64,000 nucleotides of DNA from an uncultured Pseudomonadales bacterium (GCA_964509075.1 CAZDWC010000009.1:63842-127841), one strand, 5' to 3'; counted from the first letter of the stretch, positions 12,787 through 37,317 are shown. Notes: generated from the sequence alone by a model not told the origin. Program-made: numbers and translations.

Positions 12787-12788
12787 TT

Positions 12789-12804
12789 TGGCCCACAAAA
12801 TGCA
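12789..12804 (+). promoter_or_regulatory. candidate sigma54 (-24/-12) promoter for fliE-fliJ
   Basis: TGGCCCACAAAATGCA compared with TGGCAC-N5-TTGCA: one mismatch per element and correct spacing. It lies about 89 nt upstream of the fliE ATG. Confidence 0.6.
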
Positions 12805-12892
12805 TTTGTCCCTGCACGAAAGGTATCGGCAACAAATCCGACAGATTTCTGTCAGCTTTCTGCGCGATGCCAATGGCAGCCGGGACCGGTAT

Positions 12893-13255
12893 ATGCGTAC
12901 AGAACGGGCAGACATCAATCAGGTACTGGAGCAGATGCGCGCCATGCGCAGTCAGGTGCAGCAGCCTTCCGGGCGGCTCGCAGAACTGGATCGCGCTGGC
13001 AGTGGCATCGGTGGTGTGTCCAACACACCCGGCGTCGATTTCTCGCGCCTGTTCCAGAACGCCGTCAATCAGGTCAATCAGGTACAGCAAAGTGCCAATA
13101 CCTTGGCGGATGCCTATGAAAGTGGCGCACCGGGTGTCGATGTTACCCAGGTGATGATTGCCAGCCAGAAAGCGGCGGTGTCTTTCCAGACTGCCGTGCA
13201 GGTGCGCAACAAACTGGTGAGTGCCTACCAGGACATCATGAACATGCCCATCTGA
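12893..13255 (+). CDS. fliE: flagellar hook-basal body complex protein FliE
   Basis: 120 aa ([21 protein letters not shown]...[34 protein letters not shown]), a typical FliE C-terminus. An internal ATG was chosen over the 155-aa ORF start because that start lies inside the promoter/repeat region. Confidence 0.9.
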
Positions 13256-16920: not shown

Positions 16921-18315
16921 GTGGAGCGTGACAACATGTTGCAGAATCTGGCGCACACAATGCCGCCCACGATTTTTGAACAACTGCAAGCGCGCTGGCA
17001 CAAACCGGTGATGCTGCCACCATGTGCCGTCGGACATGTCATTCGCCAGATCGGCCTGACACTGGAGGCTGCCGGACTGCAGGTGGCCATTGGCGATTAC
17101 TGTCGAGTTGCCATTAACGCACAGCATCATGTCGTCGCCGAGGTAATCGGTTTTTCCGGCAATACCGTGTCGCTGATGCCACTGGAGCGCATTGAAGGAT
17201 TGCCGCTGGGTGCTCGCGTCTGGCCGGCGCCTGATATCGCACAGCAAGTACCGGTCGGCAACGGTTTGCTGGGGCGTGTCATCGACGGTCTGGCTCGGCC
17301 GCTAGATGATCGTGGCCCGCTGCAAGTGACCGAGAGCATCTGTTTCAGTGCACAGGTGATCAATCCGCTGCATCGCAAACCCATACGTGAAACGCTGGAT
17401 GTCGGCATACGTGCCATCAACGGTTTGCTCACTGTAGGCCGCGGCCAGCGCATGGGACTGTTTGCCGGTTCCGGTGTCGGTAAAAGCGTGCTGATGGGCA
17501 TGATGACCAAATTTACCGAGGCGGATGTGGTGGTGGTGGGATTGATTGGTGAGCGCGGGCGGGAAGTGCGCGAGTTCATCGAAGATATTCTTGGCGAAGC
17601 CGGATTGCGCAAGGCCGTGGTGGTCGCTTCACCGGCTGACGATGTGCCGCTGATGCGTTTGCGTGCCTCATGGCTTGCCACACGTATTGCCGAATATTTT
17701 CGTGATCGCGGCAAGAGTGTATTGTTGTTGATGGATTCGCTCACGCGATTTGCCCAGGCGCAACGCGAAATTGCACTGGCGGCGGGAGAGCCTCCGGCAA
17801 CACGAGGTTATCCACCGTCGGTGTTTGCGAAACTGCCGGATCTGGTGGAGCGCGCCGGCAATGGTCGTGAAAATAATGGTCGTGACAGCAATGGCCAGTG
17901 CGGTTCAATAACAGCTTTTTACACGGTATTGACCGAGGGTGATGACCTGCAGGATCCGGTAGCGGACTCGGCGCGTGCGATACTGGACGGCCATGTGGTG
18001 TTGTCGCGGCGTCTGGCAGAAGAGGGCATTTATCCTGCCATTGATATCGAAGCCTCCATCAGTCGCGCCATGCCGGCCATCGTGGCGGATGAGCAGATGG
18101 GTATGGCGCAACGATTCAAGAAAATCTATGCCTGCTATCAACAGAACAGTGATCTGATCAATATCGGTGCCTACACGGCTGGCAGCAGTGCTGATATTGA
18201 TACGGCGATAGAGCGCATGCCGCATCTGAAAGCCTATGTCACACAGCATCGACTGGAGCCTGTCAATGCTGCTGCCGCACAGTTGCAACTGAAGAAGGTG
18301 CTAAATGTCGCGTGA
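16921..18315 (+). CDS. fliI: flagellum-specific ATPase FliI
   Basis: Walker A GSGVGKSVL and the F1/T3SS ATPase body. The GTG 16921 start abuts the fliH stop; ATG 16936 is an alternative. Confidence 0.93.
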   Translation: MERDNMLQNLAHTMPPTIFEQLQARWHKPVMLPPCAVGHVIRQIGLTLEAAGLQVAIGDYCRVAINAQHHVVAEVIGFSGNTVSLMPLERIEGLPLGARVWPAPDIAQQVPVGNGLLGRVIDGLARPLDDRGPLQVTESICFSAQVINPLHRKPIRETLDVGIRAINGLLTVGRGQRMGLFAGSGVGKSVLMGMMTKFTEADVVVVGLIGERGREVREFIEDILGEAGLRKAVVVASPADDVPLMRLRASWLATRIAEYFRDRGKSVLLLMDSLTRFAQAQREIALAAGEPPATRGYPPSVFAKLPDLVERAGNGRENNGRDSNGQCGSITAFYTVLTEGDDLQDPVADSARAILDGHVVLSRRLAEEGIYPAIDIEASISRAMPAIVADEQMGMAQRFKKIYACYQQNSDLINIGAYTAGSSADIDTAIERMPHLKAYVTQHRLEPVNAAAAQLQLKKVLNVA

Positions 18316-18775
18316 TCGAGCCGCGCGCATGGGGATTGTCCTGAAACTGGCAGTGGCAAAGCAGCAGCAGGCAGCAGCAGCACTGGCTGCCCTGAGTGCA
18401 CGCATTGCCAGTGAACAGGAGCGGCTCACGCAATTACAACAATTGCGGGAAGAGTATCTGGATAATTTGCGGGTGAAGCCGGGTACATGTCGCAGTGTGC
18501 AGGGTTTGCAGCACGGCATGACCGTCATCCTGCAGCTGGATAATCTCGCAGGCAATCAGGATCGCATGTTGAAACAATTGCTTATACAGCAGGCTGGTCT
18601 GCGTCAAAAACTTGAACAGTGCTGGTTGCGCTGCAGGAATCTGGAAAGATTGCAGCAGCAGTTTCGGCAGCAACAGGAAGCCGAGCAGGAAAAGCGCAGT
18701 ATGAAAATCATGGAGAATGACCGGCTGGCGCGTTCACATTCTGCCAGTTTGCAGCCAGATGGCAGCCCTCGATAG
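18305..18775 (+). CDS. fliJ: flagellar export chaperone FliJ
   Basis: 156 aa, a Q/L-rich coiled-coil protein. It overlaps the fliI end by 11 nt and occupies the canonical position. Confidence 0.8.
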   Translation: MSRDRAARMGIVLKLAVAKQQQAAAALAALSARIASEQERLTQLQQLREEYLDNLRVKPGTCRSVQGLQHGMTVILQLDNLAGNQDRMLKQLLIQQAGLRQKLEQCWLRCRNLERLQQQFRQQQEAEQEKRSMKIMENDRLARSHSASLQPDGSPR

Positions 18776-18954
18776 TCCTTAGCTATTAACCGGATTTTAT
18801 AGCGCTGTTTAATTACTAAAAAATATACATCGCCGACCCAACTTGCAGTTGGGCGGAATAATGGCGTCTACACTTTCCCATAGAAAGGCACGCACCATCA
18901 TGTGCGGTGTGAGAAATAAGCGTCAGTGACGCGTGTTTCATCCAGAGGTGAGCG

Positions 18955-19233
18955 ATGGAAGCAACAACTGTCAGTGATCTTGGGTCCCGGTTGACCATTG
19001 CGGAGGTCGAGGCCTATCAGCGTGAGCTTGAAACTGTGCTGGCCGGCAATAAGAACCTTTGCATCAACGCTTCTGCGTTGCAGAAAATTGATTGTGCGGG
19101 AGTCCAATTGTTGTGCAGCCTCAAGAAGACCTTGCTTATTGGCGAGGGTGATCTTTACTGGAAAGAGGTTTCACCGGTGCTGGCAAGTGCGGCCGGCATG
19201 CTGGGTGTTGATGGGTATTTGGGATTGGCTTGA
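18955..19233 (+). CDS. STAS-domain protein (anti-sigma-antagonist fold, non-phosphorylatable variant)
   Basis: 92 aa. Has the STAS pattern (LCINASALQKIDCAGVQLL), but the SpoIIAA phospho-Ser position (DSSG) reads DCAG. Confidence 0.75.
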   Translation: MEATTVSDLGSRLTIAEVEAYQRELETVLAGNKNLCINASALQKIDCAGVQLLCSLKKTLLIGEGDLYWKEVSPVLASAAGMLGVDGYLGLA

Positions 19234-19269
19234 TGGGCAAGCATGGCAGTAAACAGGGTGGAGTAGTGT

Positions 19270-19635
19270 ATGGCAAAGATCCTCGCAGTTGATGATTCTG
19301 CATCCATGCGCCAGATGGTGGCGTTTACCTTGCAGGGGGCCGGGCATCAGGTTTCACAGGCCTGTGATGGTATGGATGCCATGAAGGTGGCTCAGGCACA
19401 AGGTGCTTTTGATCTGGTGATTTCCGATATCAACATGCCAAACATGGATGGTATCGAACTGGTCAAGCAGCTGAGAGCGATGAGTAATTTTCGCTTTACC
19501 CCGATATTGATGTTGACGACGGAGTCTGCGGCCGACAAGAAAGTTGAAGGCAAGGCTGCCGGCGCCACAGGCTGGATTGTCAAGCCGTTCAATCCTGAGC
19601 AGTTGCTGGCGACGATCAACAAAGTACTGGGTTGA
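19270..19635 (+). CDS. cheY: chemotaxis response regulator CheY (CheY2-like)
   Basis: 121 aa single-domain receiver: ILAVDDS, VISDINMPNMDG, LMLTTES, IVKPF. Confidence 0.9.
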   Translation: MAKILAVDDSASMRQMVAFTLQGAGHQVSQACDGMDAMKVAQAQGAFDLVISDINMPNMDGIELVKQLRAMSNFRFTPILMLTTESAADKKVEGKAAGATGWIVKPFNPEQLLATINKVLG

Positions 19636-19679
19636 TACAGCCTGCCTGACAGTGTGCAGCACTTCTGAGGGATGGTTCA

Positions 19680-21755
19680 GTGTCTATTGATATTTCGCAA
19701 TTTCATCAGGTTTTTTTCGAGGAAAGTCTCGAAGGTCTTGATGGCATGGAACAGGGATTGATGAATCTGGCGCTGGATGCCGTTGACAGCGAAACCATTA
19801 ATGCCATCTTTCGTGCAGCCCATTCCATCAAGGGCGGCAGTGCCACATTCGGCTTCTCGGCGATTGCCACATTTACCCATGTGCTGGAAACTTTGCTGGA
19901 CCAGATTCGCAATGGTCAGCGGCAAATCACACAGGCGCATGTCGATCTGTTTTTGCAGTCAGTGGATTGCCTGCGGCAGATGCTGGGAAGTTACCAGCAA
20001 CAACAGGAACCGGCTCCTGGTCTTTCCGCAAACCTGCAGTCGCAATTTGAGCAGATACTCAGTGGTGCAGAGCCGACAGCGGCAAAAGCGATATCCGTGC
20101 AAGATGCACAAGTCGTGTCCGGCTGGAATATCCGTTTCGTGCCCGAAAAACAAATGCTGGCTACTGGCAATGATCCCTTGCGCATGTTCCGTGAGTTGTC
20201 GGCAATGGGTGATACCCGTGTGCTGGCGCAGCTCGACAAATTGCCAACGCTGGATGAGTTGCACAGCGAGGATTGTTACCTGAGCTGGAATGTCGTCTTG
20301 CACGGAAACATTGATCATGATGCTGTCAGAGATGTTTTTGAATGGGTGACGGATGATGCCGAGGTTGTCATTGAAGCAATGCATGATGCCGGGATCGCTC
20401 AGGACCTTCCAAAGCCGCAGGTAGCAGAGCTGGATGCAGCTGCGCACGCATCACCAATACCGGTTTCAAAGCCAAAAGATATTTCACCCACAACAGCTTC
20501 AGCAAGCGCCGAGTCTTCATCCATCCGTGTGGCGATAGACAAGATTGATGCCCTGATCAATATGGTTGGCGAGCTGGTGATAACCCAGTCCATGTTGGGT
20601 GAATTGGGGAATGGCGATTTCGATATTTCCCGTTTACCAAAGCTTCAGGAAGGTTTGAGCCAGCTTGAGCACAATACGCGAGAGCTGCAGGAAAGTGTCA
20701 TGCGTATACGCATGTTGCCTATCAGTTTTGCTTTCAGTCGATTTCCGCGCATGGTGCGCGATCTTTCGCAAAGACTGGACAAGAAAATTGATCTGGTGAT
20801 GGTGGGTGAGAATACCGAACTCGACAAGACCGTGATGGAAAAAATCGGAGACCCACTGGTGCATCTGGTGCGCAATTCGGTGGATCACGGTATCGAGTCG
20901 CCGGAAATGCGTCGTGCTTCCGGCAAGGCGGAAACCGGCAGGATAACGTTGAATGCTTTTCATCAAGGTGGCAACGTCATGATCCAGATCTGTGACGATG
21001 GCGCAGGTCTCAATGTTGACAAGATACTCTCGAAAGCGATCGAGAAGGGGCTGGTTGGACATGATGAATCTCTCAGCCGGGAACAGATCCACGACCTCAT
21101 CTTTGCCCCGGGATTCTCAACGGCCGATGCCGTCAGTGATCTCTCCGGACGGGGCGTCGGCATGGATGTGGTACGAAGAAATATTCGCGATCTTGGCGGA
21201 ACCGTGGATGTGCGATCAGAGCCTGGCAAAGGTTCAACCTTCACCGTCCGTCTACCACTGACGCTGGCCATATTGGACGGTCAATTGGTGCGAGTGGGTG
21301 AGCAGACCTACATCCTGCCGTTGGTGTCTATTGTGGAGTCCCTGCAGGTTGATAGTGCCATGGTGAATGCTGTTGGCGGCGGCTGCAACGTGTTGCGTTT
21401 ACGCAATGAATACATTCCGATTGTTCGTCTCTACGAAGCTTTCAATATTGAGGCAGAGCATCGCGATCTGGAAGAAGGGTTGCTGGTTGTTGTTGAAAGT
21501 GCCGGCGAAAAAATTGGCCTTTTGGTTGATGATTTACAGGCGCAGCAACAAGTTGTCATTAAAAGTCTTGAGCAAAATTACCAACGGGTGGAAGGTGTTT
21601 CAGGAGCGACTATCCTTGGTGATGGCACGGTTGCGCTGATTCTGGATGTCACCGGTATCGTCCGTATTTCCGGGGTTCAACATCAGCAGCTACAGGATAC
21701 GCTGGTTTTCAGGAATCAGAGTCAGGCAATTTCGCACTCGGCTTCGATGGCCTGA
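19680..21755 (+). CDS. cheA: chemotaxis histidine kinase CheA
   Basis: 691 aa, GTG start. Hpt domain (RAAHSIKGGSATFG), HATPase (DDGAGL, GRGVGMDVV) and a C-terminal CheW-like domain. Confidence 0.93.
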   Translation: MSIDISQFHQVFFEESLEGLDGMEQGLMNLALDAVDSETINAIFRAAHSIKGGSATFGFSAIATFTHVLETLLDQIRNGQRQITQAHVDLFLQSVDCLRQMLGSYQQQQEPAPGLSANLQSQFEQILSGAEPTAAKAISVQDAQVVSGWNIRFVPEKQMLATGNDPLRMFRELSAMGDTRVLAQLDKLPTLDELHSEDCYLSWNVVLHGNIDHDAVRDVFEWVTDDAEVVIEAMHDAGIAQDLPKPQVAELDAAAHASPIPVSKPKDISPTTASASAESSSIRVAIDKIDALINMVGELVITQSMLGELGNGDFDISRLPKLQEGLSQLEHNTRELQESVMRIRMLPISFAFSRFPRMVRDLSQRLDKKIDLVMVGENTELDKTVMEKIGDPLVHLVRNSVDHGIESPEMRRASGKAETGRITLNAFHQGGNVMIQICDDGAGLNVDKILSKAIEKGLVGHDESLSREQIHDLIFAPGFSTADAVSDLSGRGVGMDVVRRNIRDLGGTVDVRSEPGKGSTFTVRLPLTLAILDGQLVRVGEQTYILPLVSIVESLQVDSAMVNAVGGGCNVLRLRNEYIPIVRLYEAFNIEAEHRDLEEGLLVVVESAGEKIGLLVDDLQAQQQVVIKSLEQNYQRVEGVSGATILGDGTVALILDVTGIVRISGVQHQQLQDTLVFRNQSQAISHSASMA

Positions 21756-21779
21756 GTTATTTCGCAAGAGGATCATGCA

Positions 21780-22340
21780 ATGTCAACAGTAGAGATGCAA
21801 TCGCAAGCGTCGACACGCGAGCTGGATATGCCGGTGACTGGCATGTTGTCAGACAGTGATCAATATCTCACCTTTATCATGAACAATGAAGAATACGGTG
21901 TGGATATTCTCTGTGTACAGGAAATTCGGGGCTGGGATAATGCCACGCCCTTGCCGAACGCGCCGCCACATATCAAGGGAGTGATCAATCTGCGTGGCAC
22001 AATTGTGCCTATCGTGGATTTACGCCAGTGCTTTGGTATGCAGTCGATTGAATATACAGCGGTGACCGTGGTTATCGTTTTGAAAATAAGGACAGAGGCA
22101 GGAAGTCGCACTGTGGGTATTGTGGTAGATGCGGTATCTGATGTGTATTCGCTATCGGATAACGAAATGAAAATGCCCCCGGATCTAGGCGAATCAGTTG
22201 ATGTTTCCTACATCAAGGGTCTTGTGACAGTAAACGGCAAGATGGTCATTCTGTTGCGTTTGGAAAAGCTGTTGGAAAGTAGCGCCTTACATCAGGAAGA
22301 AATGGGGGCCGCACTTGGCGGCTTGCGTCAATTGCATTGA
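21780..22340 (+). CDS. cheW: chemotaxis coupling protein CheW
   Basis: 186 aa. CheW-like domain (YLTFIMNNEEYGVDILCVQEIRGW...IKGVINLRGTIVPIVDLR). Confidence 0.9.
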   Translation: MSTVEMQSQASTRELDMPVTGMLSDSDQYLTFIMNNEEYGVDILCVQEIRGWDNATPLPNAPPHIKGVINLRGTIVPIVDLRQCFGMQSIEYTAVTVVIVLKIRTEAGSRTVGIVVDAVSDVYSLSDNEMKMPPDLGESVDVSYIKGLVTVNGKMVILLRLEKLLESSALHQEEMGAALGGLRQLH

Positions 22341-22384
22341 TTGGTTTTTTAACGTAGAGCCGAAATCTTAGGAGAGGTATCATC

Positions 22385-25300
22385 ATGAAGCTTCAGAAAG
22401 GAAAAGGTGATTTGCTGCGCAATATTCCTATTGCGTACAAAATGGGTGCGTTACTGCTTGTTGCTGCTGTGGCGGTGATTTTTCTCAGTATGAAGACTGT
22501 CAGCGCCATCAACGACAGTATCAGACTGACGCGCAGCGAGATGGGGGGGGCAAATTACATGCGCTCCATTCTCAAGATAACAAACGATTTTATGCCTGAA
22601 TATCGCGAGCATTTGGCTAGCTACCATTCGGGGTATGCGCCAGCGGCTAATGATTTGGGTAAAGTGCGTGCAGAAATTGATGCTCTGCAGAAAGAAGTGG
22701 TGTCGGCTAATGAGCAATACGGTGGTGTTATTGATGCATCAAGTGAGGTAAATCTCTTTCTGGATCAGTGGGAGAGTGTCAAGCGTGATGGTGCCGGGTG
22801 GAGCGTCAAGGAAGCGGAGGAAAATGTATCTGCTGCCATTATCACTGGTCAAAAAGCAGTGAAGAAAATTGCGGACAAGTCAGGATTGTCTTTGGATCCG
22901 CAGTCAGATACCTATTTTCTAATGGCAACACTAGTGGATGTATTGCCGGTGTCGATGGACTCGGCTGGTCATATCAAGGCAATTTCATCGCGAATTGAAT
23001 CTCTGTCAGAGGGTGCTCAGATTGCTTACTCTGAAGTTGGTTGGTTGGCTGGGTCGGCTAAATTATTGGAGGCCAACAATATTAATTTGTTGCGTTATCT
23101 TGGTACGGCCGCCCTGGAGAATGTTGCGCTCAAGGGTATTGCTGAAAATGCAGATAAATCTGTAAATAGCTCTAATGAGTTAATTGCTGTGGTGGGTAAC
23201 TTTCTTGAGGTTCAGAAAAAAAACACCAATATGAAAACCCTCGCAAGTAGTACCTATGATGAGCTTGATTTTTTGCATGACGAAGCTGATGGTATGCTTT
23301 ATAAGTTGCTTCAAGAAAGAGAACAGTCGCTGGTTTATGAGAGGAATGTATTGGTTTTTGAAATGGCATCTGTGCTGATATTCATGGTCGTCGTCTGCTA
23401 TATGGTGGCTATCGGTACAATCAGGCCTATACGTAGAATGACAGAAATATTCAAATTAATTTCACAGGAAAAGTACGATAACGAAATTACAGAGCAGCGA
23501 AAAGATGAAATGGGGGAGTTGTTGTGCGAGCTGGTTGGTATGCAGAACATGCTGAGGCAGTCTCGTGATGCAATGGTTGAGCAGATGCGTGAGACTACTC
23601 GGATCAAGCAGGGGCTTGATGCCGTAAATGCAAATGCCATGATTGCTGATCCGGATGGAAATATTGTCTATCTCAATAAATCGGTTTCTGAAATGCTCAA
23701 GGTGGCAGAAAGCGATATTCGCAAGGATTTGCCGAAGTTTGATACCGGAAAATTGATGGGGGCTAATATTGATGTCTTCCATAAGAATCCTTCGCATCAG
23801 CGCAATATGCTGGGTGCATTGAAGGACACTTATCGAGCCCAGATTGTAGTAGGCGGTCGCACGTTCTCGCTGATTGCGAATCCTATTTTTAATGAGGCCA
23901 ATGAGCGTTTGGGTACCATTGTCGAGTGGGCTGATCGCACGGAAGAGCTGGCTAAGCTTGAGCGTGAGCGCGTGGCCAATAACGCCAATGCCCGGACCAA
24001 ACAGGCGCTGGATTCCGTTACGGCCAACGCGATGATTGCTGACCCGGATGGCAACGTGGTTTATATGAACAATGCGGTGGAGAGCATGCTGCGCAATGTT
24101 GAAGCTGACCTGCGTAAGGCGCTTCCGCATTTCAGTGTTGATAAGGTTGTCGGTGCCAATATTGATATTTTTCACAAGAATCCTTCGCATCAGCGCAATC
24201 TTTTGGCTAACTTGACTACTACTTATCGGGCGCAAATTGAAGTGGCAGGAAAGACTTTTGCCTTGATCGCCAATCCTGTGAGCAATGAGCAGGGCGAGCG
24301 TATCGGCACGGTGGTTGAGTGGAACGACCGCACTGCTGAAGTCGCCATTGAAAAAGAAATTGATGTTCTGGTTGATGCTGCTTCGAGTGGTGACTTTACG
24401 CGTCAGGTTTCTCTGGACGGAAAAGTTGGTTTCTTCCTTAATCTGGCTAAAGGCTTGAACAAGCTGGTGGAGACTACGGAGTTAGGCATCAATGATGTGT
24501 TGCGCACTTTGGGTGCAATGGCCAAAGGCGATATGACCGTTCGTATTACTCGTGAATATCAAGGCGCATTTGAACAATTAAAGATTAACTCGAATGCCAC
24601 TGCAGAAAAACTCACCGAAATCATCAGTGAGATTAACCAGGCGGCAGCAACTATTTCTAACGGTGCCAATGAAATTGCGCAGGGCAATACCGATTTGAGC
24701 CAGCGTACGGAAGAGCAGGCTTCAAGTCTTGAGGAAACCGCGTCGAGCATGGAACAAATGACCAGCACTGTTAAACAAAGTGCCGAAAATGCCAAACACG
24801 CGAATAGTCTTGCGCAGGAGGCTCAGCAGAAAGCGCGCAGTGGTGGCGAAGTGGTGTCGAAAGCAGTGTCTGCGATGCAGGCGATCAACAGTGCTAGCAA
24901 GAAAATTGCCGACATCATTGGTGTCATTGATGAAATTGCTTTCCAGACCAACTTGCTCGCGCTCAATGCAGCGGTAGAGGCGGCGCGCGCGGGTGAACAG
25001 GGCCGGGGATTTGCTGTGGTGGCAGGTGAGGTGCGCAATCTCGCGCAGCGCTCGGCAGATGCGGCAAAAGAAATCAAAGGGCTGATTCAGGACAGTGTTG
25101 TCAAGGTTGAAGATGGTAGCAAGCTGGTCAATGAGTCAGGCTATACCTTGCAGGAAATTGTGGAAGCGGTGCAGAAAGTCAGTTCGATGATGCAGGATAT
25201 TGCCTCCGCTGCTGCTGAGCAGACTGCCGGCATCGAGCAGGTTAATACGGCTGTGACACAAATGGATGCAATGACGCAGCAAAATGCTGCGCTGGTGGAA

Positions 25301-25507
25301 GAGGCCTCGGCTGCCGGTGAAGCAATGGCCGAACAGGCATCCAATCTTGCGAAGATGATGCGCTTTTTTACGGTCGCAGGTATGGAGTCTTCTGCATTGA
25401 CAGCGCCAACCATGCGCGCGCCTCGCTCTGCACCAGCCAGGCAGATTTCTGCTCGTGCCACCAGTCGTTCCTCAGATTCTGCTGATGATGACTGGAATGA
25501 ATTCTAG
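22385..25507 (+). CDS. methyl-accepting chemotaxis protein with periplasmic domain, two tandem PAS domains and a C-terminal xWxxF pentapeptide
   Basis: 1040 aa. Two TM segments flank a periplasmic region of about 300 aa. These are followed by a HAMP domain, a duplicated PAS module (..[10 protein letters not shown].. twice), a second HAMP domain and the MCP signalling domain ([43 protein letters not shown]). The protein ends in ...DDDWNEF. Confidence 0.93.
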
Positions 25508-25572
25508 GCTTTTATGGCGGATAGTTTACGAGTGCGCGGATTGTTTTGATCGTTCATTTGAGAGTGGCAAGC

Positions 25573-26430
25573 ATGTTGCAGGACAGCAATTCGCATGAAC
25601 AGCGTGAATTTCCCATGTCGGAAGCCAATTTTTCGGCATTGAGCAAGCGCATTTATCACTTGGCTGGTATTAGTCTCAGTCCACATAAGAAACAATTGGT
25701 ATACAGCCGTATCGCAAAACGCATTCGCACGCTCGGACTGCGTTCATTTGATGATTATTGCCAGGTGGTAAATGATGATGATTCGCCAGAGATAACCGAA
25801 TTTATCAATGCTATCACAACTAACCTTACTTCTTTTTTCAGAGAGAATCATCATTTCGATTTTCTGAAAAGCCATGTGATTCCGGAGCTGAAGCAAGTGC
25901 ACCGTACAGACAGGCGCATACGCGTCTGGTCTGCAGGCTGCTCCACCGGTGAAGAGCCGTATTCCATCGCTGCGACCATGAATTCGCAATTAGCCAATGA
26001 GAATTGGGATTTGCGCATTCTGGCTACAGATCTGGACAGCAATGTACTTGCCCATGCCAGGCAGGGCATCTATGCCTCTGACAAGGTTGAGTCACTGGAT
26101 GACGTGCAAAAAAAACTTCTGTTCGAACGTCGCAATCAGGATGGAGCTATGGCGGTCAAGCAGTCTCTGCGACAGCTGATCACTTTCAATCAGCTGAACC
26201 TGATGCAAAATTGGCCGATGTCAGGTCCATTCGATGTTATTTTCTGTCGGAATGTGATGATCTATTTTGACAAGCCGACTCAGAAGCAGTTATTTGAAAA
26301 ATTCCACAGTCTTTTATCGAACAGCGGCTATTTGCTAATCGGGCACTCGGAGTCCATGCATGGCATGGACAGGAAGTTTCGCAATCTGGGCAAGACCATG
26401 TATCAGAAGGCAGCTACATGGAGCGCCTGA
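25573..26430 (+). CDS. cheR: chemotaxis protein methyltransferase CheR
   Basis: CheR N-terminal helical domain plus a SAM-MTase domain (RVWSAGCSTGEEPYSIA, FCRNVMIYFD). ATG 25573 is chosen over the upstream TTG 25546. Confidence 0.9.
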   Translation: MLQDSNSHEQREFPMSEANFSALSKRIYHLAGISLSPHKKQLVYSRIAKRIRTLGLRSFDDYCQVVNDDDSPEITEFINAITTNLTSFFRENHHFDFLKSHVIPELKQVHRTDRRIRVWSAGCSTGEEPYSIAATMNSQLANENWDLRILATDLDSNVLAHARQGIYASDKVESLDDVQKKLLFERRNQDGAMAVKQSLRQLITFNQLNLMQNWPMSGPFDVIFCRNVMIYFDKPTQKQLFEKFHSLLSNSGYLLIGHSESMHGMDRKFRNLGKTMYQKAATWSA

Positions 26431-27092
26431 TTGCTGGAAGGGAGATGCGTTCGGCCATGCCGCCGTGGCCTCCAGTGCGTCAGGAATTTCTGCACGTCAA
26501 CCGATATTGGGATAACCAGAACCAGTGTTTTGTGGCCAAGATACTTCCCGGTGAGTTTTTTGTATCGGAGCATGGCGAGGCAGTCGCCACGACGCTGGGC
26601 TCCTGTATATCTGCATGCGTCCGTGATCCGTTCCGCGGTGTTGGTGGCATGAATCACTTCATGTTGCCTATCCAGGGAGAAGGCAATGAATGTTGGCAGA
26701 AGGATTTCAACAGTTTGCCGTCGCGTTACGGCAACTGGGCGATGGAATACCTGATTAATGAGGTCATGAAATATGGCGGCAAGAAGCACAATCTAGAAGT
26801 GAAAGTTGTCGGTGGCGGGCATGTGCTGAGCGGCATGAGACAGAATCCTGTCGGCGAGAGAAATATTGAATTTGTTTTTGACTGGTTGAAGAAAGAGGGT
26901 TTTACCATTTCCGGTTCAGATGTGGGTGACAAGTATCCACGTAAGGTGATGTATTTTCCTGAAACAGGTGCGGTGAGAGTCAAGAAGCTGCGTACCTTGT
27001 CCAATGAGACAATCGCCCAGCGTGAGACTGCATATCAACGTACTATCGAGAAAGATTCAGGTAAGGATGCTGGAAATGTCGAATTGTTCTGA
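26418..27092 (+). CDS. cheD: chemoreceptor glutamine deamidase CheD
   Basis: 224 aa. CheD pattern (TTLGSCISACVRDP, GGMNHFMLP). It overlaps the cheR end by 13 nt. Confidence 0.85.
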   Translation: MERLIAGREMRSAMPPWPPVRQEFLHVNRYWDNQNQCFVAKILPGEFFVSEHGEAVATTLGSCISACVRDPFRGVGGMNHFMLPIQGEGNECWQKDFNSLPSRYGNWAMEYLINEVMKYGGKKHNLEVKVVGGGHVLSGMRQNPVGERNIEFVFDWLKKEGFTISGSDVGDKYPRKVMYFPETGAVRVKKLRTLSNETIAQRETAYQRTIEKDSGKDAGNVELF

Positions 27093-27115
27093 TAACTGGA
27101 GTTGAGGTGTAACTC

Positions 27116-28189
27116 ATGGAACAGGCTAAGAGCAGGGCTTCAGGACAGACGATCAGGGTTGTTGTGGTCGATGATTCTGCTGTCATACGTGCTGTATTGA
27201 AGGAAATTCTGGAATCGGATACCCGTATTGAAGTGGTGGCTGTGGCTGTCGATGCTCATGATGCCCGTGAAAAAATCAAGCAGTTCAATCCGGATGTCAT
27301 CACTCTGGATATTGAAATGCCGCGCATGGATGGCATCACGTTCCTGCGCAATATCATGCGCCTGCGGCCAATGCCGGTTGTGATGGTATCCACACTGACA
27401 GCGGCGGGTGCGCCTGTGACGCTGGAAGCGCTGGAAATTGGTGCCATTGACTACATAGCCAAGCCGCAGGCGGGTAATGGTGATCTCAGAGACTATAGTG
27501 CGACTATCATTCACAAGGTGGTGGGAGCTGCGCGTGCGAATGTGCGCGCGATGGATGACGTTCGCGCCCAGCAAGGCCAGCACACCCAGTTGACTTTGCC
27601 GGCCGGTAAAAAGTTACGGCATAACTACCTGTGCGCGATTGGTGCATCTACGGGTGGCACAGAAGCAATCATGCAAGTGGTTTCAATGTTGCCGGCCAAT
27701 TCACCGCCTGTCGTGATAACCCAGCATATTCCTGAAGCATTCAGTACCTCTTTTGCACAACGGCTCAATTCTCGCTGTGCCATTACTGTCTATGAGGCCA
27801 AGGATGGACAACTTGTTGAACCGGGCTGTGCCTATCTCGCTCCCGGTGATGACCATCTGTTGATCCGCAAGTCTGCGCGCGGATATGTCTGTGTGCTTGA
27901 AAAGTCGGAGAAGGTGAATCGGCACAGGCCGTCTGTCGATATGTTATTTGATTCGGTTGTTCAGGCAGCGGGGGATAATGCCTGCGGCATATTGTTGACC
28001 GGCATGGGAGCCGACGGCGCGAAAGGTTTGCTGAACATGCGCATGGCCGGTGCAATAACCGTGGCGCAGGATGAGTCTACCAGTGTGGTATGGGGTATGC
28101 CCGGTGCTGCAGTCAAGATGGACGCTGCCTGCAAGGTGTTGCCCTTGCACAAGGTGGCGCAGTTTATCCTGCATGATGCATTTGTATGA
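27116..28189 (+). CDS. cheB: chemotaxis methylesterase/response regulator CheB
   Basis: 357 aa. Receiver (VVVDDS, ITLDIEMPRMDG) plus a methylesterase domain (IGASTGG, MGADGA). Confidence 0.92.
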   Translation: MEQAKSRASGQTIRVVVVDDSAVIRAVLKEILESDTRIEVVAVAVDAHDAREKIKQFNPDVITLDIEMPRMDGITFLRNIMRLRPMPVVMVSTLTAAGAPVTLEALEIGAIDYIAKPQAGNGDLRDYSATIIHKVVGAARANVRAMDDVRAQQGQHTQLTLPAGKKLRHNYLCAIGASTGGTEAIMQVVSMLPANSPPVVITQHIPEAFSTSFAQRLNSRCAITVYEAKDGQLVEPGCAYLAPGDDHLLIRKSARGYVCVLEKSEKVNRHRPSVDMLFDSVVQAAGDNACGILLTGMGADGAKGLLNMRMAGAITVAQDESTSVVWGMPGAAVKMDAACKVLPLHKVAQFILHDAFV

Positions 28190-28317
28190 TGAACAAATTT
28201 GCAAACTTTTATGCAAGGCTGGATAGCTTGTCTATAGTTAGAAAAGAGGATCAACGCCGTCAGGTGCTGATCATGGCACAACCCGGTTTTGAACAGCAAT
28301 GTTGAAAAGAGGATGTT

Positions 28318-28623
28318 ATGAGCTTTACAACTGATTATTCGAATGCAAGTCACGAGCTTAAAATCAACATTGAGGGGCGTTTCGATTTCAGTGCCCATCA
28401 GGAATTTCGCAATTGCTATGAAAGCCTGAATGACAAGCCGGGTGCATATTGTCTTGATATGGCTTCTGCAACGTATCTGGACAGTTCTGCACTGGGTATG
28501 CTTCTGCTGCTCAGGGATCATGCCGGTGGCGACAAGGCGAATATCCGTATCGTGAATTGCAACCCGGATGTCAAAAAAATACTTACGATTTCCAACTTCC
28601 AGCAGTTGTTTACTATCCAGTAG
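28318..28623 (+). CDS. STAS-domain anti-sigma-factor antagonist (HsbA/SpoIIAA-like)
   Basis: 101 aa. Has the canonical phosphorylatable motif YLDSSALGMLLLL. AGAGGA lies upstream of the ATG. Confidence 0.85.
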   Translation: MSFTTDYSNASHELKINIEGRFDFSAHQEFRNCYESLNDKPGAYCLDMASATYLDSSALGMLLLLRDHAGGDKANIRIVNCNPDVKKILTISNFQQLFTIQ

Positions 28624-28635
28624 CCTGGATGAACC

Positions 28636-30351
28636 ATGTTCAGATCGGCGCGGTTGCCGGATGCCAACCCTTCGATACTGCTGGTATCGAATTCGGAGGC
28701 GGACTCCGGTTATATAGGCGAAATTGTCAAGGCTGACCGATACTCACTGGTGTCGTGCAGTGATGCAGAAAGGGCGTTGGGGCTTTTCGAGATCAATGCC
28801 TATGACATCGTCTTGCTTAATGAGACCTTCACGGCTGACTGTATCGTCGATTTGATATCACGATTGCGGCAGGCTGCGGCAGAGCGTTTTGTACCTGTAG
28901 TCCTGTTGCTGAAAGATCAGGACAGTTATTACCTCTCCGATTACATCAATGCCGGCGCTGATGATTTTCTCTCATGGCCCATCCAACCGGATATCCTGCT
29001 GGCAAAGTTGCGTCTGTCCAACCAGATGCGCTTGATGCAGGCGACACTTCAGCATCAGCGCGACCAGATCCGTTTGCACAATGATCACTTGCTGCAGGAG
29101 CAGCAGGTGGCCAAACGCATTTACGACAATATCACCAGCAGTGGTTGTTTGAGCGCTGAAAATATCCGCTATTTCATGTCGCCGATGGCCATGTTCAATG
29201 GCGACATACTGGTTGCCGCGATGCGTCCATCAGGCAATATGCTCATCTTGCTGGGCGATTTCACCGGCCACGGTTTGCCGGCTGCTATCGGCGCGATCCC
29301 GCTGTCTTCCGCATTTTATGGCATGGTACACAAGGGTTTTGAGTCTGAAGATATTCTTCGTGAAATCAACCAGAAGGTGAAGGCGGCGTTGCCTGTGGGA
29401 TTTTTTTGTTGTGCCTGCATGGTTGAACTGGACTTGTACGAGCAGACAGTTATGGTCTGGAACGGCGGCATGCCGGATGCTTACCTGCTGCATGAAGATT
29501 CGACTATTGAAACCATTGCCTCCAGTCATGTTGCATTGGGCGTGCTCGACAATCGGCAGTTTGATGCGAGATTCCAGCGCTATGCGATGCAGACGGGCGA
29601 CAGGCTTTTTCTGTGGACGGACGGCATTATTGAAGCGACCAATGCCGACGGCAGTATGTTTGGGGAGGACAAGCTGCGCAAGGTTTTTGACACAGGTATT
29701 GCCTCTGACGATTTGATGCGTGATGTCTGTGTGGCTGTTGATGAATTTATCGGTGATGGCAGCAGCAGTGATGATGTGTCTATCGTCGAAATCAGCATGG
29801 TCAATCCGGAAAGTGTCAACATCCAGGAAAACAGCTCTCTGGCACAAACCACCCAGACAGCGCCAACGGACTGGTCAATGAGTTTTGAAATATCGCCGGC
29901 TGCCGCAAGGGCTGGCAGCCCGATTCCCATGATGATGAACTTGCTGCTAGAGGTGCCGGGTTTGCGCCAACACAGCAGTTCTATTTTCACTATCCTGACA
30001 GAGCTGTATTCGAATGCACTGGAGCATGGCATTCTTGGTCTCGACTCGGCCGCCAAGCATTCTGCCAATGGCTTTCTCGACTATTACACGGAGCGTGACA
30101 GACGCCTTGCCGAAGTGGAGGGTGGCAGCATCGCTTTTCATATGCGTCATGTTGCCGATGCGGAAGGTGGTCAGCTGACAATCTCTGTGCATGATTCCGG
30201 CCCTGGCTTCGATTACGAAAAGTGCCATAAAGCATCCAACAGTTTCAGTGGTCGCGGCATCATGCTGCTGGAGCAGCTGTGTGAATCCCTGCATTATTGT
30301 GGTAACGGCAACCAGGTCGAAGCCGTTTATCGCTGGCGTGATTATCGCTGA
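28636..30351 (+). CDS. HsbR-like fusion: degenerate receiver + PP2C (SpoIIE) phosphatase + RsbW-type Ser kinase (HATPase)
   Basis: 571 aa. An N-terminal REC-like fold lacks the conserved acidic/Thr/Lys residues. PP2C motifs are present (GDFTGHG, WTDGIIEA, DDVSIVEI). The C-terminus has a GHKL ATPase (LYSNALEHG, HDSGPGFD, GRGIMLL). Confidence 0.85.
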   Translation: MFRSARLPDANPSILLVSNSEADSGYIGEIVKADRYSLVSCSDAERALGLFEINAYDIVLLNETFTADCIVDLISRLRQAAAERFVPVVLLLKDQDSYYLSDYINAGADDFLSWPIQPDILLAKLRLSNQMRLMQATLQHQRDQIRLHNDHLLQEQQVAKRIYDNITSSGCLSAENIRYFMSPMAMFNGDILVAAMRPSGNMLILLGDFTGHGLPAAIGAIPLSSAFYGMVHKGFESEDILREINQKVKAALPVGFFCCACMVELDLYEQTVMVWNGGMPDAYLLHEDSTIETIASSHVALGVLDNRQFDARFQRYAMQTGDRLFLWTDGIIEATNADGSMFGEDKLRKVFDTGIASDDLMRDVCVAVDEFIGDGSSSDDVSIVEISMVNPESVNIQENSSLAQTTQTAPTDWSMSFEISPAAARAGSPIPMMMNLLLEVPGLRQHSSSIFTILTELYSNALEHGILGLDSAAKHSANGFLDYYTERDRRLAEVEGGSIAFHMRHVADAEGGQLTISVHDSGPGFDYEKCHKASNSFSGRGIMLLEQLCESLHYCGNGNQVEAVYRWRDYR

Positions 30352-30526
30352 TCGTTCTGGTTTGAATTCCTGGCAATTTTAATCCGTTGCCGGCAATATC
30401 TTGCCGTATTCCCCGAATACATATTACAAGCCCTGTATTCTTTCAGTGTGTTGCATTGTGCTGCCTTTTGGCAGCATTCTTGCTTTATATGCCTCGATTG
30501 TTTTGATTGCTGTCGAGGATATGACG

Positions 30527-32065
30527 ATGGAATTGTTGCCTTTACCCGTATTTTCTCCTGTTGGTGCTGCAGGCAATGATCGATCGTCTGCATTTCAGGG
30601 CGAAATGCATGAACAGCCGGACACCGGTTTTGCCAGTTTGTTTCACGAGCGCCTTTCAGCTGCGCCATCGTCGCAACATTTTCAAACTTCAATATCTTCT
30701 GCAGCCCGCGATTATCATCGTGAGCGTCCGCTGGATTCTTCCAGAGCTTTGGATGAGCCGGATTGCAGTGGCACGCGCGATAGCGGGATTGAATCTGGCG
30801 GGTATGATCTGCCACGCGAAGCCGGCCGTGACGAAGTGTCTCTTGCGGCTAGCGGTGAATCTTCTTCTCAGCCACTGCGTGAAGACGGATATGAAAAGGA
30901 AAATGAGCACGAGACACATGGTGCTGATTCCATGTTGCAGGGTAACAAGACTGATGAAGACACAACTATCCCTGTCAGTCTTGGTGTTGTAGAGATGGAA
31001 GACATGTCGGGGGAAAAATCATTGGCGACTGACTTCGCTGTATTCGAAGGTAGCGATGCTGATTCACTTTCTCTGCTGGAGATGTCGTTGATTCCGTTGG
31101 GTTCGCAGTTCGCTGCGGATGTAGGCGAGGATGTCGAAGGACTTGTCGAAGAACTCGCGGCAGATGCAGGCGACTCGGACGATGCGATGCTGCTCGATGA
31201 TGCAGACCTCGCGTTGCCTGTGTGGATCGCCCAGGCATTCATCGCACCGGCAGCAGCTGGGGCAGTTGCCGGTGATGCTACTGATACTGTGTCATTGCTG
31301 CCAGGCACTGCAGATGCTGCGCTCGGCAAGGCCCTTCAGGCTTGGCTGGCACAGGATGAGGTTATACAAAGCAGCTCCGCAGGCATTGATGCGGATGCGA
31401 ACGCTCCGTCATCGCCAGCTTTCGCGGTTGCAACACAGGTGTTGCAGACGGGTAATTCATCCGCATTGCGCGAGGCTATTTCGGCTGCGGTATTGCAATT
31501 ACAGTCCGTGCCGGCGCGGACGGCGGATACGGCGCCAGTGGCGATGGGCGAGTTCGATGAGGGTGTTGACGTTGCTACATCCTTGACGGGTATCGCGCAC
31601 AACACAGCTGCAATGCGTGTGCAGGCAATGACGCCGCAGCAGGCGCTGCAGCAGGCCGGCGTGATGGCGGAAAAGCTCGCGGCACAGATCGTCTGGATGC
31701 AGTCCCAGCATATTCAGCGCGCGGAAATGCGTTTGTCGCCGGAAAATCTGGGGCCGTTGCAGATTCAGCTGGATATCCAGCGCGACCAGGCCAGTGTCAG
31801 TGTCAGTTCTGCTCATCAGCAGGTGCGTGAGTGGCTTGATGCCGGTCAGTTCCGTCTGCGCGATTTACTGGGCCAGAGTGGTCTGCAATTGTCTTCCTAT
31901 TCGGTGTCGGATCACGGCAGTCATAATGCCCAGCAACAGCAGGGTGAAGAAGGTGCGCGGCAGCAGGCCACTGGAACTGGCATCGCACAGCCTGATAACC
32001 ATGATGAGCCTGAGGCCATTGTGCCGCTGCGCATGGGAATTGGCTTGGTGGATAATTACGCCTGA
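30527..32065 (+). CDS. fliK: flagellar hook-length control protein FliK
   Basis: Acidic, low-complexity central region. C-terminal Flg_hook domain (MRLSPENLGPLQIQLDIQRDQASVSVSSAHQQVREWL). GAGGA lies 7 nt upstream of ATG 30527; ATG 30521 and TTG 30401 are alternative starts. Confidence 0.8.
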   Translation: MELLPLPVFSPVGAAGNDRSSAFQGEMHEQPDTGFASLFHERLSAAPSSQHFQTSISSAARDYHRERPLDSSRALDEPDCSGTRDSGIESGGYDLPREAGRDEVSLAASGESSSQPLREDGYEKENEHETHGADSMLQGNKTDEDTTIPVSLGVVEMEDMSGEKSLATDFAVFEGSDADSLSLLEMSLIPLGSQFAADVGEDVEGLVEELAADAGDSDDAMLLDDADLALPVWIAQAFIAPAAAGAVAGDATDTVSLLPGTADAALGKALQAWLAQDEVIQSSSAGIDADANAPSSPAFAVATQVLQTGNSSALREAISAAVLQLQSVPARTADTAPVAMGEFDEGVDVATSLTGIAHNTAAMRVQAMTPQQALQQAGVMAEKLAAQIVWMQSQHIQRAEMRLSPENLGPLQIQLDIQRDQASVSVSSAHQQVREWLDAGQFRLRDLLGQSGLQLSSYSVSDHGSHNAQQQQGEEGARQQATGTGIAQPDNHDEPEAIVPLRMGIGLVDNYA

Positions 32066-32143: not shown

Positions 32144-32722
32144 ATGGCTTTTGAATTGCCTGCGCTGCCCTACGCCAAAGATGCTCTCGCCCCACACATT
32201 TCTGCTGAAACGCTGGAGTTCCACTACGGCAAACATCACCAGGCCTATGTCACCAATCTGAACAATCTGGTACCGGGCACTGAATTTGAAGGCAAGAGCC
32301 TGGAAGAGATCATCAAATCTTCCAGTGGTGGTATTTACAACAACGCTGCACAAATCTGGAATCACACCTTTTACTGGAATTGCCTGACACCGAATGGCGG
32401 TGGCGAGCCTACGGGTGCGCTGGCGGATGCCATCAACAAGGCTTACGGTTCTTTCGCGGCGTTCAAGGAAAAATTCAGCACGATGGCAGTAGGCAATTTC
32501 GGTTCTGCCTGGACCTGGCTGGTGAAAAATGCCGATGGTTCGGTCGAGATTGTCAACATGGGGGCTGCCGGTTGCCCGATGGTAGATGGCAAGAAAGCGC
32601 TGCTGACTTGCGATGTATGGGAACATGCCTACTACATCGACTACCGCAACTTGCGTGCAAAGTATGTCGAGTCATTCTGGAATCTGGTCAACTGGGATTT
32701 TGTGGCCAAAAATTTCGGCTGA
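32144..32722 (+). CDS. sodB: iron superoxide dismutase
   Basis: 192 aa, near-collinear with E. coli SodB (AFELPALPYAKDALAPHISAETLEFHYGKHHQAYVTNLNNL ... DVWEHAYYIDYRN). Confidence 0.95.
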   Translation: MAFELPALPYAKDALAPHISAETLEFHYGKHHQAYVTNLNNLVPGTEFEGKSLEEIIKSSSGGIYNNAAQIWNHTFYWNCLTPNGGGEPTGALADAINKAYGSFAAFKEKFSTMAVGNFGSAWTWLVKNADGSVEIVNMGAAGCPMVDGKKALLTCDVWEHAYYIDYRNLRAKYVESFWNLVNWDFVAKNFG

Positions 32723-36685: not shown

Positions 36686-37317
36686 TGAAAATGCTGCAAT
36701 TACCGACAGTAGCCCAGGCCTTGCCCGGACGTGATCAGCCCATGCCGGTGCCTGCTGAACATGCGGTATTGCATACACCCTTGCTGCCACCATTTCCGAA
36801 GGGTATGGCTGTGGCCATGTTCGGCATGGGCTGCTTCTGGGGGGCAGAGCGCAAGTTCTGGAAAGTATCAGGCGTTTACAGTACAGCGGTGGGTTATGCC
36901 GGCGGCTTGACGCCTAACCCGACCTACGAAGAAGTCTGTTCGGGCCTGACCGGACATAACGAAGTGGTGCAGGTGGTATTTGATCCCGCTCTGGTCAATT
37001 TTGAGGATTTGCTGAAAGTTTTCTGGGAAGGCCATAACCCGACTCTGGGCATGCGTCAGGGCAATGATATCGGCACCCAGTATCGTTCAGGCATTTATTG
37101 CGTCACACATCAGCAACTCGAAGAGGCTGCTGTGAGCCGGGCGCGCTACCAACAGGCTCTCGATACACAGGGCTTGTGTATCACAACGGAAATCCTGCCG
37201 GCACCGGTGTTTTACTATGCCGAACCCTACCACCAACAGTATCTGTACAAGAATCCTGATGGTTATTGCCCGGCCATCGGTTACGAAGCCTGCGGATTGC
37301 CTGCGTTTCCTGCCTGA
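36685..37317 (+). CDS. msrA: peptide-methionine (S)-S-oxide reductase MsrA
   Basis: [13 protein letters not shown] active-site motif. The ATG overlaps the upstream stop (TGATG). Confidence 0.93.

Follow-up and report, generated by a model that had tools for sequence, protein, structure and literature searches.

Which output does a chemosensory pathway serve when its genes lie inside a flagellar cluster and beside a partner-switching module? This question is raised by positions 18955 to 30351 of a 64,000-nucleotide stretch of DNA from an uncultured Pseudomonadales bacterium (GCA_964509075.1, CAZDWC010000009.1:63842-127841; this whole stretch is hereafter called the window). Using Pfam, we identified in this block and at its borders, in order, fliJ, STAS1, cheY, cheA, cheW, a receptor gene, cheR, cheD, cheB, STAS2 (hsbA), hsbR and fliK. 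All the genes of the block are on the plus strand and are separated by small gaps, with the exception of 179 bp before STAS1, 128 bp before STAS2 and about 175 bp before fliK. A preliminary description of the locus had given the same genes in the same order, from fleQ-fleSR-fliEFGHIJ through the STAS gene to fliK, and the Pfam matches bear it out. It had also proposed a link between the che genes and the partner switch. Such a link is real and already published, for the stage 1 F7 clusters (Ortega et al. 2020) and for CrsR/CrsA in the Che1 locus of Shewanella oneidensis.

We propose that an F7 operon of the stage 1 type is joined here to an HsbA/HsbR switch, that the inputs of this switch have been rerouted to non-covalent ones, and that its output would be a sigma factor or cyclic di-GMP (c-di-GMP) and not the motor. 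We hold this reading with modest confidence. The main value of the locus is its bearing on the output of F7/Aer2 systems. The cluster type, the presence of Hsb genes between fliJ and fliK, and the idea of a partner-switching output are already published, and many genomes have che and hsb genes joined in this way. What appears to be new is a lineage-specific pseudo-receiver in an HsbR without HptB, a STAS1 protein that is apparently non-phosphorylatable, and a membrane-anchored Aer2-like receptor with two predicted haem sites.

The HsbA/HsbR switch and its receiver domain

In most Pseudomonas, hsbA-hsbR-hptB lie between fliJ and fliK and are co-transcribed with fliK and the genes that follow it (bioRxiv 10.1101/2021.08.29.457346). 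In Pseudomonas aeruginosa, HptB phosphorylates the receiver of HsbR, which turns HsbR from a kinase into a phosphatase acting on Ser56 of HsbA; in its unphosphorylated form HsbA binds FlgM, and once phosphorylated it binds HsbR and HsbD (PMC6482189). It had been regarded as peculiar that fliK does not follow fliJ in the window. This view does not stand, as hsbAR-hptB occupy the same interval in Pseudomonas, and 30 loci besides the window, spread over many genera, have che genes inserted there (see below).

STAS2 (28318..28623, 101 amino acids, Pfam STAS) is the HsbA orthologue of the window. It is 57-78% identical to the STAS proteins that precede hsbR in 82 related loci (58-61% for Pseudomonas) and retains D55-S56-S57, with Ser56 aligned to the phospho-Ser56 of P. 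aeruginosa HsbA. After a gap of 12 bp follows the gene of the HsbR-like protein (28636..30351), which has 571 amino acids and the Pfam architecture Response_reg-SpoIIE-HATPase_c_2, the first match being weak. The protein consists of a receiver (residues ~12-130), a long helix, a PP2C phosphatase domain (~196-390) and a kinase/anti-sigma domain of the RsbW type (~436-571). Its earlier designation as an RsbU/RsbW-type fusion was right for the PP2C and RsbW-type domains and left out the receiver-like domain at the N-terminus. HsbR itself ends in a domain of the anti-sigma (RsbW-like) type. No HsbR hidden Markov model of NCBIfam matched the protein, and its assignment rests on synteny and identity. 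Its closest homologues, from Cellvibrionaceae and related groups, carry the annotation HsbR or fused response regulator/phosphatase. Their identity is about 47%, except for one sequence at 67% (from GCA_041447075.1, hereafter the 67% relative).

The window thus shares with the HptB-HsbR-HsbA systems of Pseudomonas (P. putida, P. fluorescens, P. syringae) the position after fliJ and before fliK, the Ser56 of HsbA, the three-domain HsbR, and intact PP2C and kinase motifs. Unlike these loci, it lacks hptB, its receiver is non-phosphorylatable, a 9.4-kb F7 che operon separates fliJ from hsbA, and fliLMNOPQR do not follow fliK.

The receiver is the domain that sets this HsbR apart. The five sites of receiver phospho-chemistry (the acidic pair, the acceptor Asp, the Thr/Ser and the Lys) read S-N-N-L-W in the window and S-S-S-L-Y in the 67% relative; they read D/E-D-D-T-K in all 82 other orthologues. 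The receiver is the best conserved HsbR domain among normal orthologues and the most diverged one in the window: its identity to the orthologues is 0.27, against 0.65 for the orthologues among themselves and 0.47 for the window and the 67% relative. The two other domains diverge normally, with corresponding values of 0.49, 0.55 and 0.80 for PP2C, and of 0.47, 0.50 and 0.66 for the kinase. Their catalytic residues are invariant with those of 23 orthologues, i.e., D208, D329, D379 and D380 in PP2C, and N460, D520/G522/G524 and G539/G541 (the N, G1 and G2 boxes) in the kinase.

In the AlphaFold2 prediction, residues 13-125 adopt a (beta-alpha)5 fold, with a predicted local distance difference test (pLDDT) score of ~84-93, and then a long helix into PP2C. 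The best NCBIfam alignment of the pseudo-receiver (28636-29055) was to the PleD model at PleD positions 153-284, which we take to be the second, non-phosphorylated adaptor receiver of PleD. This hints that the pseudo-receiver is converging on an adaptor-type receiver. When it was searched alone against 1.84 billion representative proteins, only its own cluster was matched below an E-value of 1e-30; the other matches were at most 37% identical, and nearly all of them at most 30%.

Could the HsbR-like gene simply be decaying after the loss of hptB, with the switch dead in this lineage? Five active-site residues of the receiver are gone, and STAS1 also lacks the Thr/Ser expected in its motif. Yet the open reading frame (ORF) is intact over 571 amino acids and the 67% relative has a 588-amino-acid version. 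The PP2C and kinase domains are still 80% and 66% identical to those of the relative, their catalytic motifs are invariant with functional orthologues, and HsbA keeps Ser56. Hence, we find this explanation very improbable.

The second loss is that of hptB, which is absent from the locus: the spacer between hsbR and fliK has only 175 bp. A gene for an Hpt protein follows hsbR in all 82 other loci, and the 67% relative also has no hptB at the locus. One locus (L050) had seemed to lack hptB in a tblastn search; this was rejected when the listing of its ORFs revealed a divergent Hpt gene. Searched with two HptB query sequences, the window gave a single significant match, the Hpt (P1) domain of CheA. 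The preliminary description had mentioned neither the missing hptB nor the degeneration of the receiver.

These two losses bear directly on the model put forward in that description, in which CheA phosphorylates the receiver of HsbR, or drives a phospho-cascade through the STAS proteins, and thereby frees FliA from FlgM to control flagellar genes. The model draws on the position of the block inside the flagellar cluster, on the binding of FlgM by unphosphorylated HsbA in P. aeruginosa, and on the Hpt domain of CheA as the sole significant Hpt-like match in the window. However, the receiver has neither the acceptor Asp nor the acidic pair, the Thr or the Lys. Judged by these residues, phosphotransfer from CheA to it is chemically excluded: since the acceptor Asp and the four other sites are lost, CheA should be unable to phosphorylate this HsbR, and any coupling between them would have to be non-covalent. 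The joint loss of hptB and of the acceptor site, with an intact CheA next door, further argues that HptB and not CheA was the donor of the receiver. Were CheA a significant donor, the loss of hptB should not bring the decay of the site.

The flagellar output of this model meets its own difficulty. In a P. putida preprint, hsbA, hsbR and hptB had no influence on swimming or on transcription that depends on FliA, and an extensive search did not uncover binding of HsbA to FlgM, so that the link described in P. aeruginosa was not reproduced there. As already reported for the window, we saw neither fliA nor flgM among its annotated ORFs, its small ORFs not having been scanned exhaustively. Taken together, we consider control of flagellar genes by CheA through FlgM to be improbable.

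The chemosensory genes and their receptor

Stage 1 F7 clusters have the order STAS-cheY-cheA-cheW(x2)-aer2-cheR-cheD-cheB-mcpA-STAS-Ser phosphatase. They are the oldest form of F7, their function is unknown, and examples are found in Vibrio cholerae (cluster III) and Methylomicrobium alcaliphilum (Ortega et al. 2020, PMC7184735). The window shares with them the 5' STAS gene, the core order from cheY to cheB, the second STAS gene with the Ser phosphatase, an Aer2-like receptor of the 36H class with haem-PAS domains, the absence of cheZ, and a CheY that is closest to CheY4 of V. cholerae (VcCheY4). Stage 1 clusters have two cheW genes and an mcpA-like receptor, whereas the window has a single cheW and a 128-bp gap between cheB and STAS2. 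It also differs from them in that its receptor is predicted to be membrane-anchored with a periplasmic domain, in that the cluster lies between fliJ and fliK, and in that the phosphatase protein carries a pseudo-receiver.

The che order had been equated with that of P. aeruginosa cluster II. The core order does agree, as do several Che2/F7 features (36H, haem-PAS, cheD and no cheZ), but the V. cholerae-type stage 1 cluster fits better. Che2 (cluster II, a stage 2 F7 system) has in common with the window the core cheY-cheA-cheW-aer2-cheR-cheD-cheB, an Aer2-type PAS-haem receptor and the C-terminal xWxxF. Unlike the window, it has no 5' STAS gene, and its Aer2 (PaAer2) is soluble with one PAS domain. 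The Che2 cluster is presumably located well away from both the flagellar genes and hsbAR. The statement that the output of Che2 is not established remains correct: the output of Aer2/Che2-type F7 systems is given as unknown in the supplement of Ortega et al. 2020.

A parallel to the partner switch is found in S. oneidensis. There the Che1 (stage 2 F7) locus holds CrsR, a REC-PP2C-kinase protein, and its STAS partner CrsA, which control RpoS; this control is proposed to be post-translational. As in the window, a REC-PP2C-kinase protein and a STAS antagonist thus lie beside an Aer2-containing F7 system. Unlike in the window, crsA and crsR are 5' of cheY together with mcpA, in a locus outside any flagellar cluster, and the receiver of CrsR is functional according to the literature. 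HsbR of P. aeruginosa is only ~25% identical to CrsR (PMC6482189). A review on V. cholerae makes no mention of STAS or phosphatase genes, and our literature search found no paper joining HsbR with Aer2 or with an F7 system.

The first gene of the block, STAS1 (18955..19233), encodes a 92-amino-acid protein of the STAS_2 type (Pfam STAS_2, 41.3 bits). It reads D-C-A-G, with Cys47 aligned to the phospho-Ser56 of HsbA, and the 16 orthologues of STAS1 that we recovered 5' of an F7 cheY all have D-T/S in this motif. No relative in the PDB and no matching model in NCBIfam was found for STAS1.

CheY (19270..19635, Pfam Response_reg, 96.5 bits) has an intact active site (D8, D9, D53, T83, K105). Its best match in the PDB is VcCheY4 (4h60/4hnr, 152 bits), and the motor CheYs (those of Escherichia coli and Salmonella, and VcCheY3) score at most 89.5 bits. 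By manual residue count, W102 and T115 match W101 and T114 of VcCheY4. Compared with its counterparts in related che-block loci, the protein is 66-75% identical. VcCheY4, a cluster III protein, fails to bind FliM even in its activated state (PMC3774744). Because the CheY of the window is closest to a protein that does not bind FliM, its sequence argues against direct control of the motor.

CheA (19680..21755) has Hpt, dimerisation, HATPase and CheW-like domains in Pfam, with the HSIKG phospho-His motif and the N, G1, F and G2 boxes all present. It is followed by the single CheW (21780..22340, Pfam CheW, 128.8 bits) and, after the receptor gene, by CheR (25546..26430, Pfam CheR and CheR_N; an alternative start is possibly at 25573, and the gene call has 285 amino acids). 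CheD (26418..27092, Pfam CheD) scores 246 bits with NCBIfam NF010013, above the cutoff of 223 bits. CheB (27116..28189, Pfam Response_reg and CheB_methylest) has an intact receiver. For CheA, CheW and CheR, the nearest NCBIfam models are those of E. coli (F7), all scoring below their cutoffs, e.g., the best model of CheA is the E. coli-type PRK10547, with 648 bits for a cutoff of 793. Neither the ORF map nor Pfam revealed a cheZ between 18955 and 30351.

The receptor (22385..25507, 1040 amino acids) was analysed with Pfam, hydropathy and PDB matches. Two transmembrane (TM) segments are predicted at about residues 14-40 and 320-345, with a mean hydropathy above 2 over 19 residues, and would delimit a periplasmic region of ~280 amino acids. 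The second segment is followed by HAMP, two PAS domains (405-521 and 535-650), HAMP_2, a 36H signalling domain and a C-terminal DWNEF. The receptor was placed in the 36H class because its signalling domain aligns with that of E. coli Tsr (36H) with no indels over ~300 residues. DWNEF is a pentapeptide of the xWxxF type, similar to those of other Aer2 receptors, and probably tethers CheR.

The hallmarks of Aer2 are a haem-ligating His in E-eta, an O2-stabilising Trp in I-beta and a C-terminal DxT (PMC10107281). Both PAS domains of the receptor match the PAS structures of P. aeruginosa Aer2 (3vol, 4hi4) with E-values of 1e-42 to 1e-69. Aligned to PaAer2 (4hi4/3vol) and to the Aer2 of V. cholerae (6ceq), both retain the His of FHKNP, the Trp of veW and DRT. 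By this analogy, both would bind haem and O2. The Vibrio Aer2 equivalog NF041847 scored 634.6 bits for a cutoff of 1200, matching only residues 483-1040. The characterised Aer2 members are soluble and have no periplasmic domain, from which this receptor departs. Its N-terminal part (22385-23419, residues 1-345) has no Pfam match in the periplasmic region, and a homologue search with these residues returned zero sequences, the receptor itself included. This region may be an unclassified ligand-binding domain. The receptors of related clusters have between zero and four haem-PAS motifs and, in some cases, N-terminal TM segments; all of them end with xWxEF. In five che-block loci (L025, L030, L048, L058 and L062), cheR follows cheW directly, with no receptor gene in the cluster.

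The fliJ-fliK interval in related genomes

A survey of the fliJ-fliK interval in related genomes had been suggested in the preliminary description. We scanned species-representative genomes with an HsbR alignment, which matched at least 595 loci, and analysed the best 80 of these together with the window, Marinimicrobium and Aurantivibrio (83 loci), mapping them with the proteins of the window. The che block is directly 5' of hsbA in 31 of the 83 loci, window included, and hsbA directly follows fliI-fliJ in 41; these loci are best matches and not a random sample, so that the ratio of 31 to 41 is no estimate of frequency. The remaining 11 loci were too short to be classed. In Marinimicrobium, for example, the order is fliEFGHIJ-STAS-HsbR-Hpt-fliK-fliLMN, and in Aurantivibrio it is STAS-cheY-cheA-cheW-PAS receptor (methyl-accepting chemotaxis protein)-cheR-cheD-cheB-STAS-HsbR-Hpt, followed further on by fliK-fliLMN.

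The loci with the che block include those of Aurantivibrio, Maricurvus, Bacterioplanoides, Thalassolituus, Oleispira, Bermanella, Ketobacter and Oceanobacter, and of members of Hahellaceae, Oleiphilaceae and Saccharospirillaceae. Those where hsbA follows fliJ include Cellvibrio, Marinimicrobium, Gilvimarinus, Marinobacter and Pseudomonas. Within 10-kb flanks, 10 of the che-block loci have the C-terminus of FliI just 5' of STAS1, with a gap of the size of fliJ, which indicates that the insertion point is the same. Between cheB and hsbA, a Ketobacter metagenome-assembled genome (L024, 8651-9469) has a 272-amino-acid ORF with a motif resembling the hairpin of methyl-accepting chemotaxis proteins, ELGRGFVTVAKEM; this is probably the short mcpA-like receptor of a stage 1 cluster. 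At the same place, a Bermanella locus (L051) has a porin-like ORF.

In a neighbour-joining tree of HsbR, built with the receiver excluded and without support values, loci with and without the che block are interspersed, even within Oleispira. Because of this interspersion, we infer that the joint che-hsb arrangement is probably ancestral in Pseudomonadales and that loss of the che genes occurred more than once. Pairwise distances of CheA/CheB correlate with those of HsbR (Spearman rho ~0.64; 0.71 for CheA versus CheB), and the nearest relatives of CheA, CheB and HsbR of the window are in the same Cellvibrionales loci.

These data also speak to the origin of the block. It had been allowed that the arrangement might be an assembly artefact, and one could more generally suppose that the block was mis-assembled or is a foreign island of recent origin, given that the GC content is 0.495-0.51 in the block and 0.55 in its flanks. 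Yet the stretch from cheR to fliK is identical in three contigs from separate sequencing runs, and the 67% relative, so named for the identity of its HsbR-like protein, has the same gene order as the window. Because these independent contigs agree with each other and with the order of the relative, we rejected the assembly artefact. As for the foreign island, a milder dip in GC content is seen in most related che-block loci and also spans the resident hsbAR genes, and CheA, CheB and HsbR share their nearest Cellvibrionales loci. A recent island was rejected on these two grounds, and we find either version of this explanation hardly credible.

A more serious challenge is that the two modules might be mere neighbours. 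Both would then be modules of the RpoS/stationary phase that settled at a permissive junction; the F7 system would have some other output, or its CheY would be a phosphate sink, and the Hsb switch would in this lineage run solely on its expression level or on the ATP/ADP ratio. The 41 genomes with hsbAR-hptB and no che genes agree with this, as does the hsbA-fliJ junction, a recognised and preferred insertion point in Pseudomonas (bioRxiv 10.1101/2021.08.29.457346). RpoS dependence has been reported for the F7 systems of P. aeruginosa and V. cholerae and for hsbAR-hptB of P. putida, and hsbA has its own 128-bp spacer with a possible -10 element. However, F7 che genes of Vibrio, Methylomicrobium and Shewanella likewise have STAS and PP2C genes beside them, and these loci are not part of a flagellar cluster. 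Furthermore, the two modules have stayed adjacent across deep clades and their proteins co-diverge, and a STAS gene heads the che operon, although STAS proteins have no known role in chemotaxis. We regard independence as unlikely, while giving it real weight.

The spacer in question (28190..28317) holds TGTCTATAGTTAG, which could be read as an RpoS-type or extended -10 element; the sigma70 scan of the spacer did not pick it up. The hsbA promoter of P. putida is RpoS-dependent according to the P. putida preprint. On the independent contigs, the gene caller placed a 38-amino-acid ORF in this spacer (28189-28305), which matches no family and is probably spurious.

Proposed coupling and output, and surroundings of the locus

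How might the F7 operon and the Hsb switch work as one pathway? The membrane-anchored receptor would sense O2 through its haem-PAS domains, and a periplasmic signal, and would control CheA. CheA would phosphorylate the VcCheY4-like CheY and CheB, with CheR, CheB and CheD providing adaptation. On the Hsb side, the kinase domain of HsbR would phosphorylate Ser56 of HsbA and its PP2C domain would dephosphorylate it, and the phosphorylation state of HsbA would pick its binding partner. In other species HsbA is known to bind FlgM, diguanylate cyclases and the anti-sigma domain of HsbR, which holds RpoS, and in P. putida HsbA inhibits a diguanylate cyclase and hsbAR-hptB depend on RpoS, according to the P. 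putida preprint.

In the lineage of the window, the input from HptB would have been removed and the pseudo-receiver, though apparently folded, would be unable to accept a phosphoryl group. Since the locus has no hptB and a receiver that is non-phosphorylatable, the switch must be set in another way, most likely a non-covalent one. CheY~P and STAS1 are the candidates for this coupling because both are products of the cluster without an assigned function. One or both may bind the pseudo-receiver or the kinase domain of HsbR and shift the balance between kinase and phosphatase. A precedent exists in Bacillus subtilis, where the binding of RsbT to the N-terminal domain of RsbU, which is not a receiver fold, activates the PP2C domain that acts on the STAS antagonist. 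The window encodes no RsbT-like kinase and no stressosome genes, and the analogy is one of mechanism only. The output of the joint pathway would be the availability of a sigma factor or the level of c-di-GMP, and not direct control of the motor.

Several points weigh against joining the two modules in this way. The link between the che genes and HsbR/HsbA is one of adjacency alone, and the 41 surveyed genomes that keep hsbAR-hptB without a che block indicate that the switch works without che genes. A gene for HptB could lie elsewhere in the genome, of which 64 kb are visible, although it would be unable to use the receiver of the window. The pseudo-receiver is represented by two divergent sequences only, and its predicted fold is biased by an input alignment made mostly of normal receivers. 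Haem binding, TM topology and promoters are predictions. The choice of loci in the survey and the type of HsbR tree, as given above, count on the same side.

One may go further than the proposed pathway and suppose that the Hsb switch is the ancestral, long-sought output of the non-motor Aer2/Che2 (F7) pathways, and that in the lineage of the window the chemosensory pathway provides its sole sensory input, through CheY~P and/or the non-phosphorylatable STAS1 binding the pseudo-receiver as a docking domain independent of phosphorylation. On this view, the cluster would turn a signal of O2 and of a periplasmic ligand, with adaptation, directly into control of a sigma factor or of c-di-GMP. This extension is doubtful, and we offer it as speculation. 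Still, che and Hsb genes form one contiguous and co-inherited block in many marine Pseudomonadales, which makes for a testable hypothesis, in P. aeruginosa too: does Che2 signalling alter the phosphorylation of HsbA? The lineage of the window is a natural experiment in this respect, as the input from HptB is deleted and the receiver disabled, and any remaining regulation of HsbA must come by another route. If there is no coupling, the locus amounts to a regular example of a cluster type already described, with a lineage-specific pseudo-receiver.

Pattern scans for promoters gave little on the che side. The fliJ-STAS1 spacer (18776..18954, 179 bp) has no sigma54-like, sigma28-like or strong sigma70-like match, and the scans for these three factors yielded nothing usable as a promoter of the che operon. 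At the other end of the block, TGGCAGcattcTTGC (30469..30483, plus strand) is a sigma54-like -24/-12 element 5' of fliK; in the flagellar region, no other intergenic site matched this pattern. The element points to a separate fliK promoter of the FleQ/FleR type, which would fit the internal promoter reported 5' of fliK in P. putida. The element overlaps a hairpin in the hsbR-fliK spacer that was flagged as terminator-like by the scan (30458-30483). The start of fliK had been placed at a TTG at 30401; we favour 30527 as the most likely one, 3' of TGGCAGcattcTTGC. From this start, fliK (30527..32065, plus strand) encodes 512 amino acids, as in the gene call (Pfam Flg_hook, 69 bits).

Upstream of the block, Pfam and the ORF map place fleQ at 8049-9545, fleS at 9647-10951, fleR at 10948-12321 and fliE within 12788-13255, followed by fliF, fliG, fliH and fliI. 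The last flagellar gene before STAS1 is fliJ (18305..18775, plus strand, Pfam FliJ, E-value 9.6e-7). The flagellar region stops at fliK, and neither fliLMNOPQR nor flhB was found in the window. This break after fliK is also present in the 67% relative. The ORF directly 3' of fliK (32144-32722) was considered as a possible fliL and rejected, as Pfam identifies it as an Fe/Mn superoxide dismutase. A gene for methionine sulfoxide reductase (msrA, 36655-37317) lies 4 kb beyond it. The proximity of these oxidative-stress genes to a putative O2-sensing pathway is possibly a coincidence. Directly 5' of fleQ, where Pseudomonas has fliS/fliT, the window encodes a DUF5122 beta-propeller protein (6364-7779). 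Genes for cytochrome c maturation (ccmC-like, ccmF and a thioredoxin-like ccmG) are found downstream at 47268-51286.

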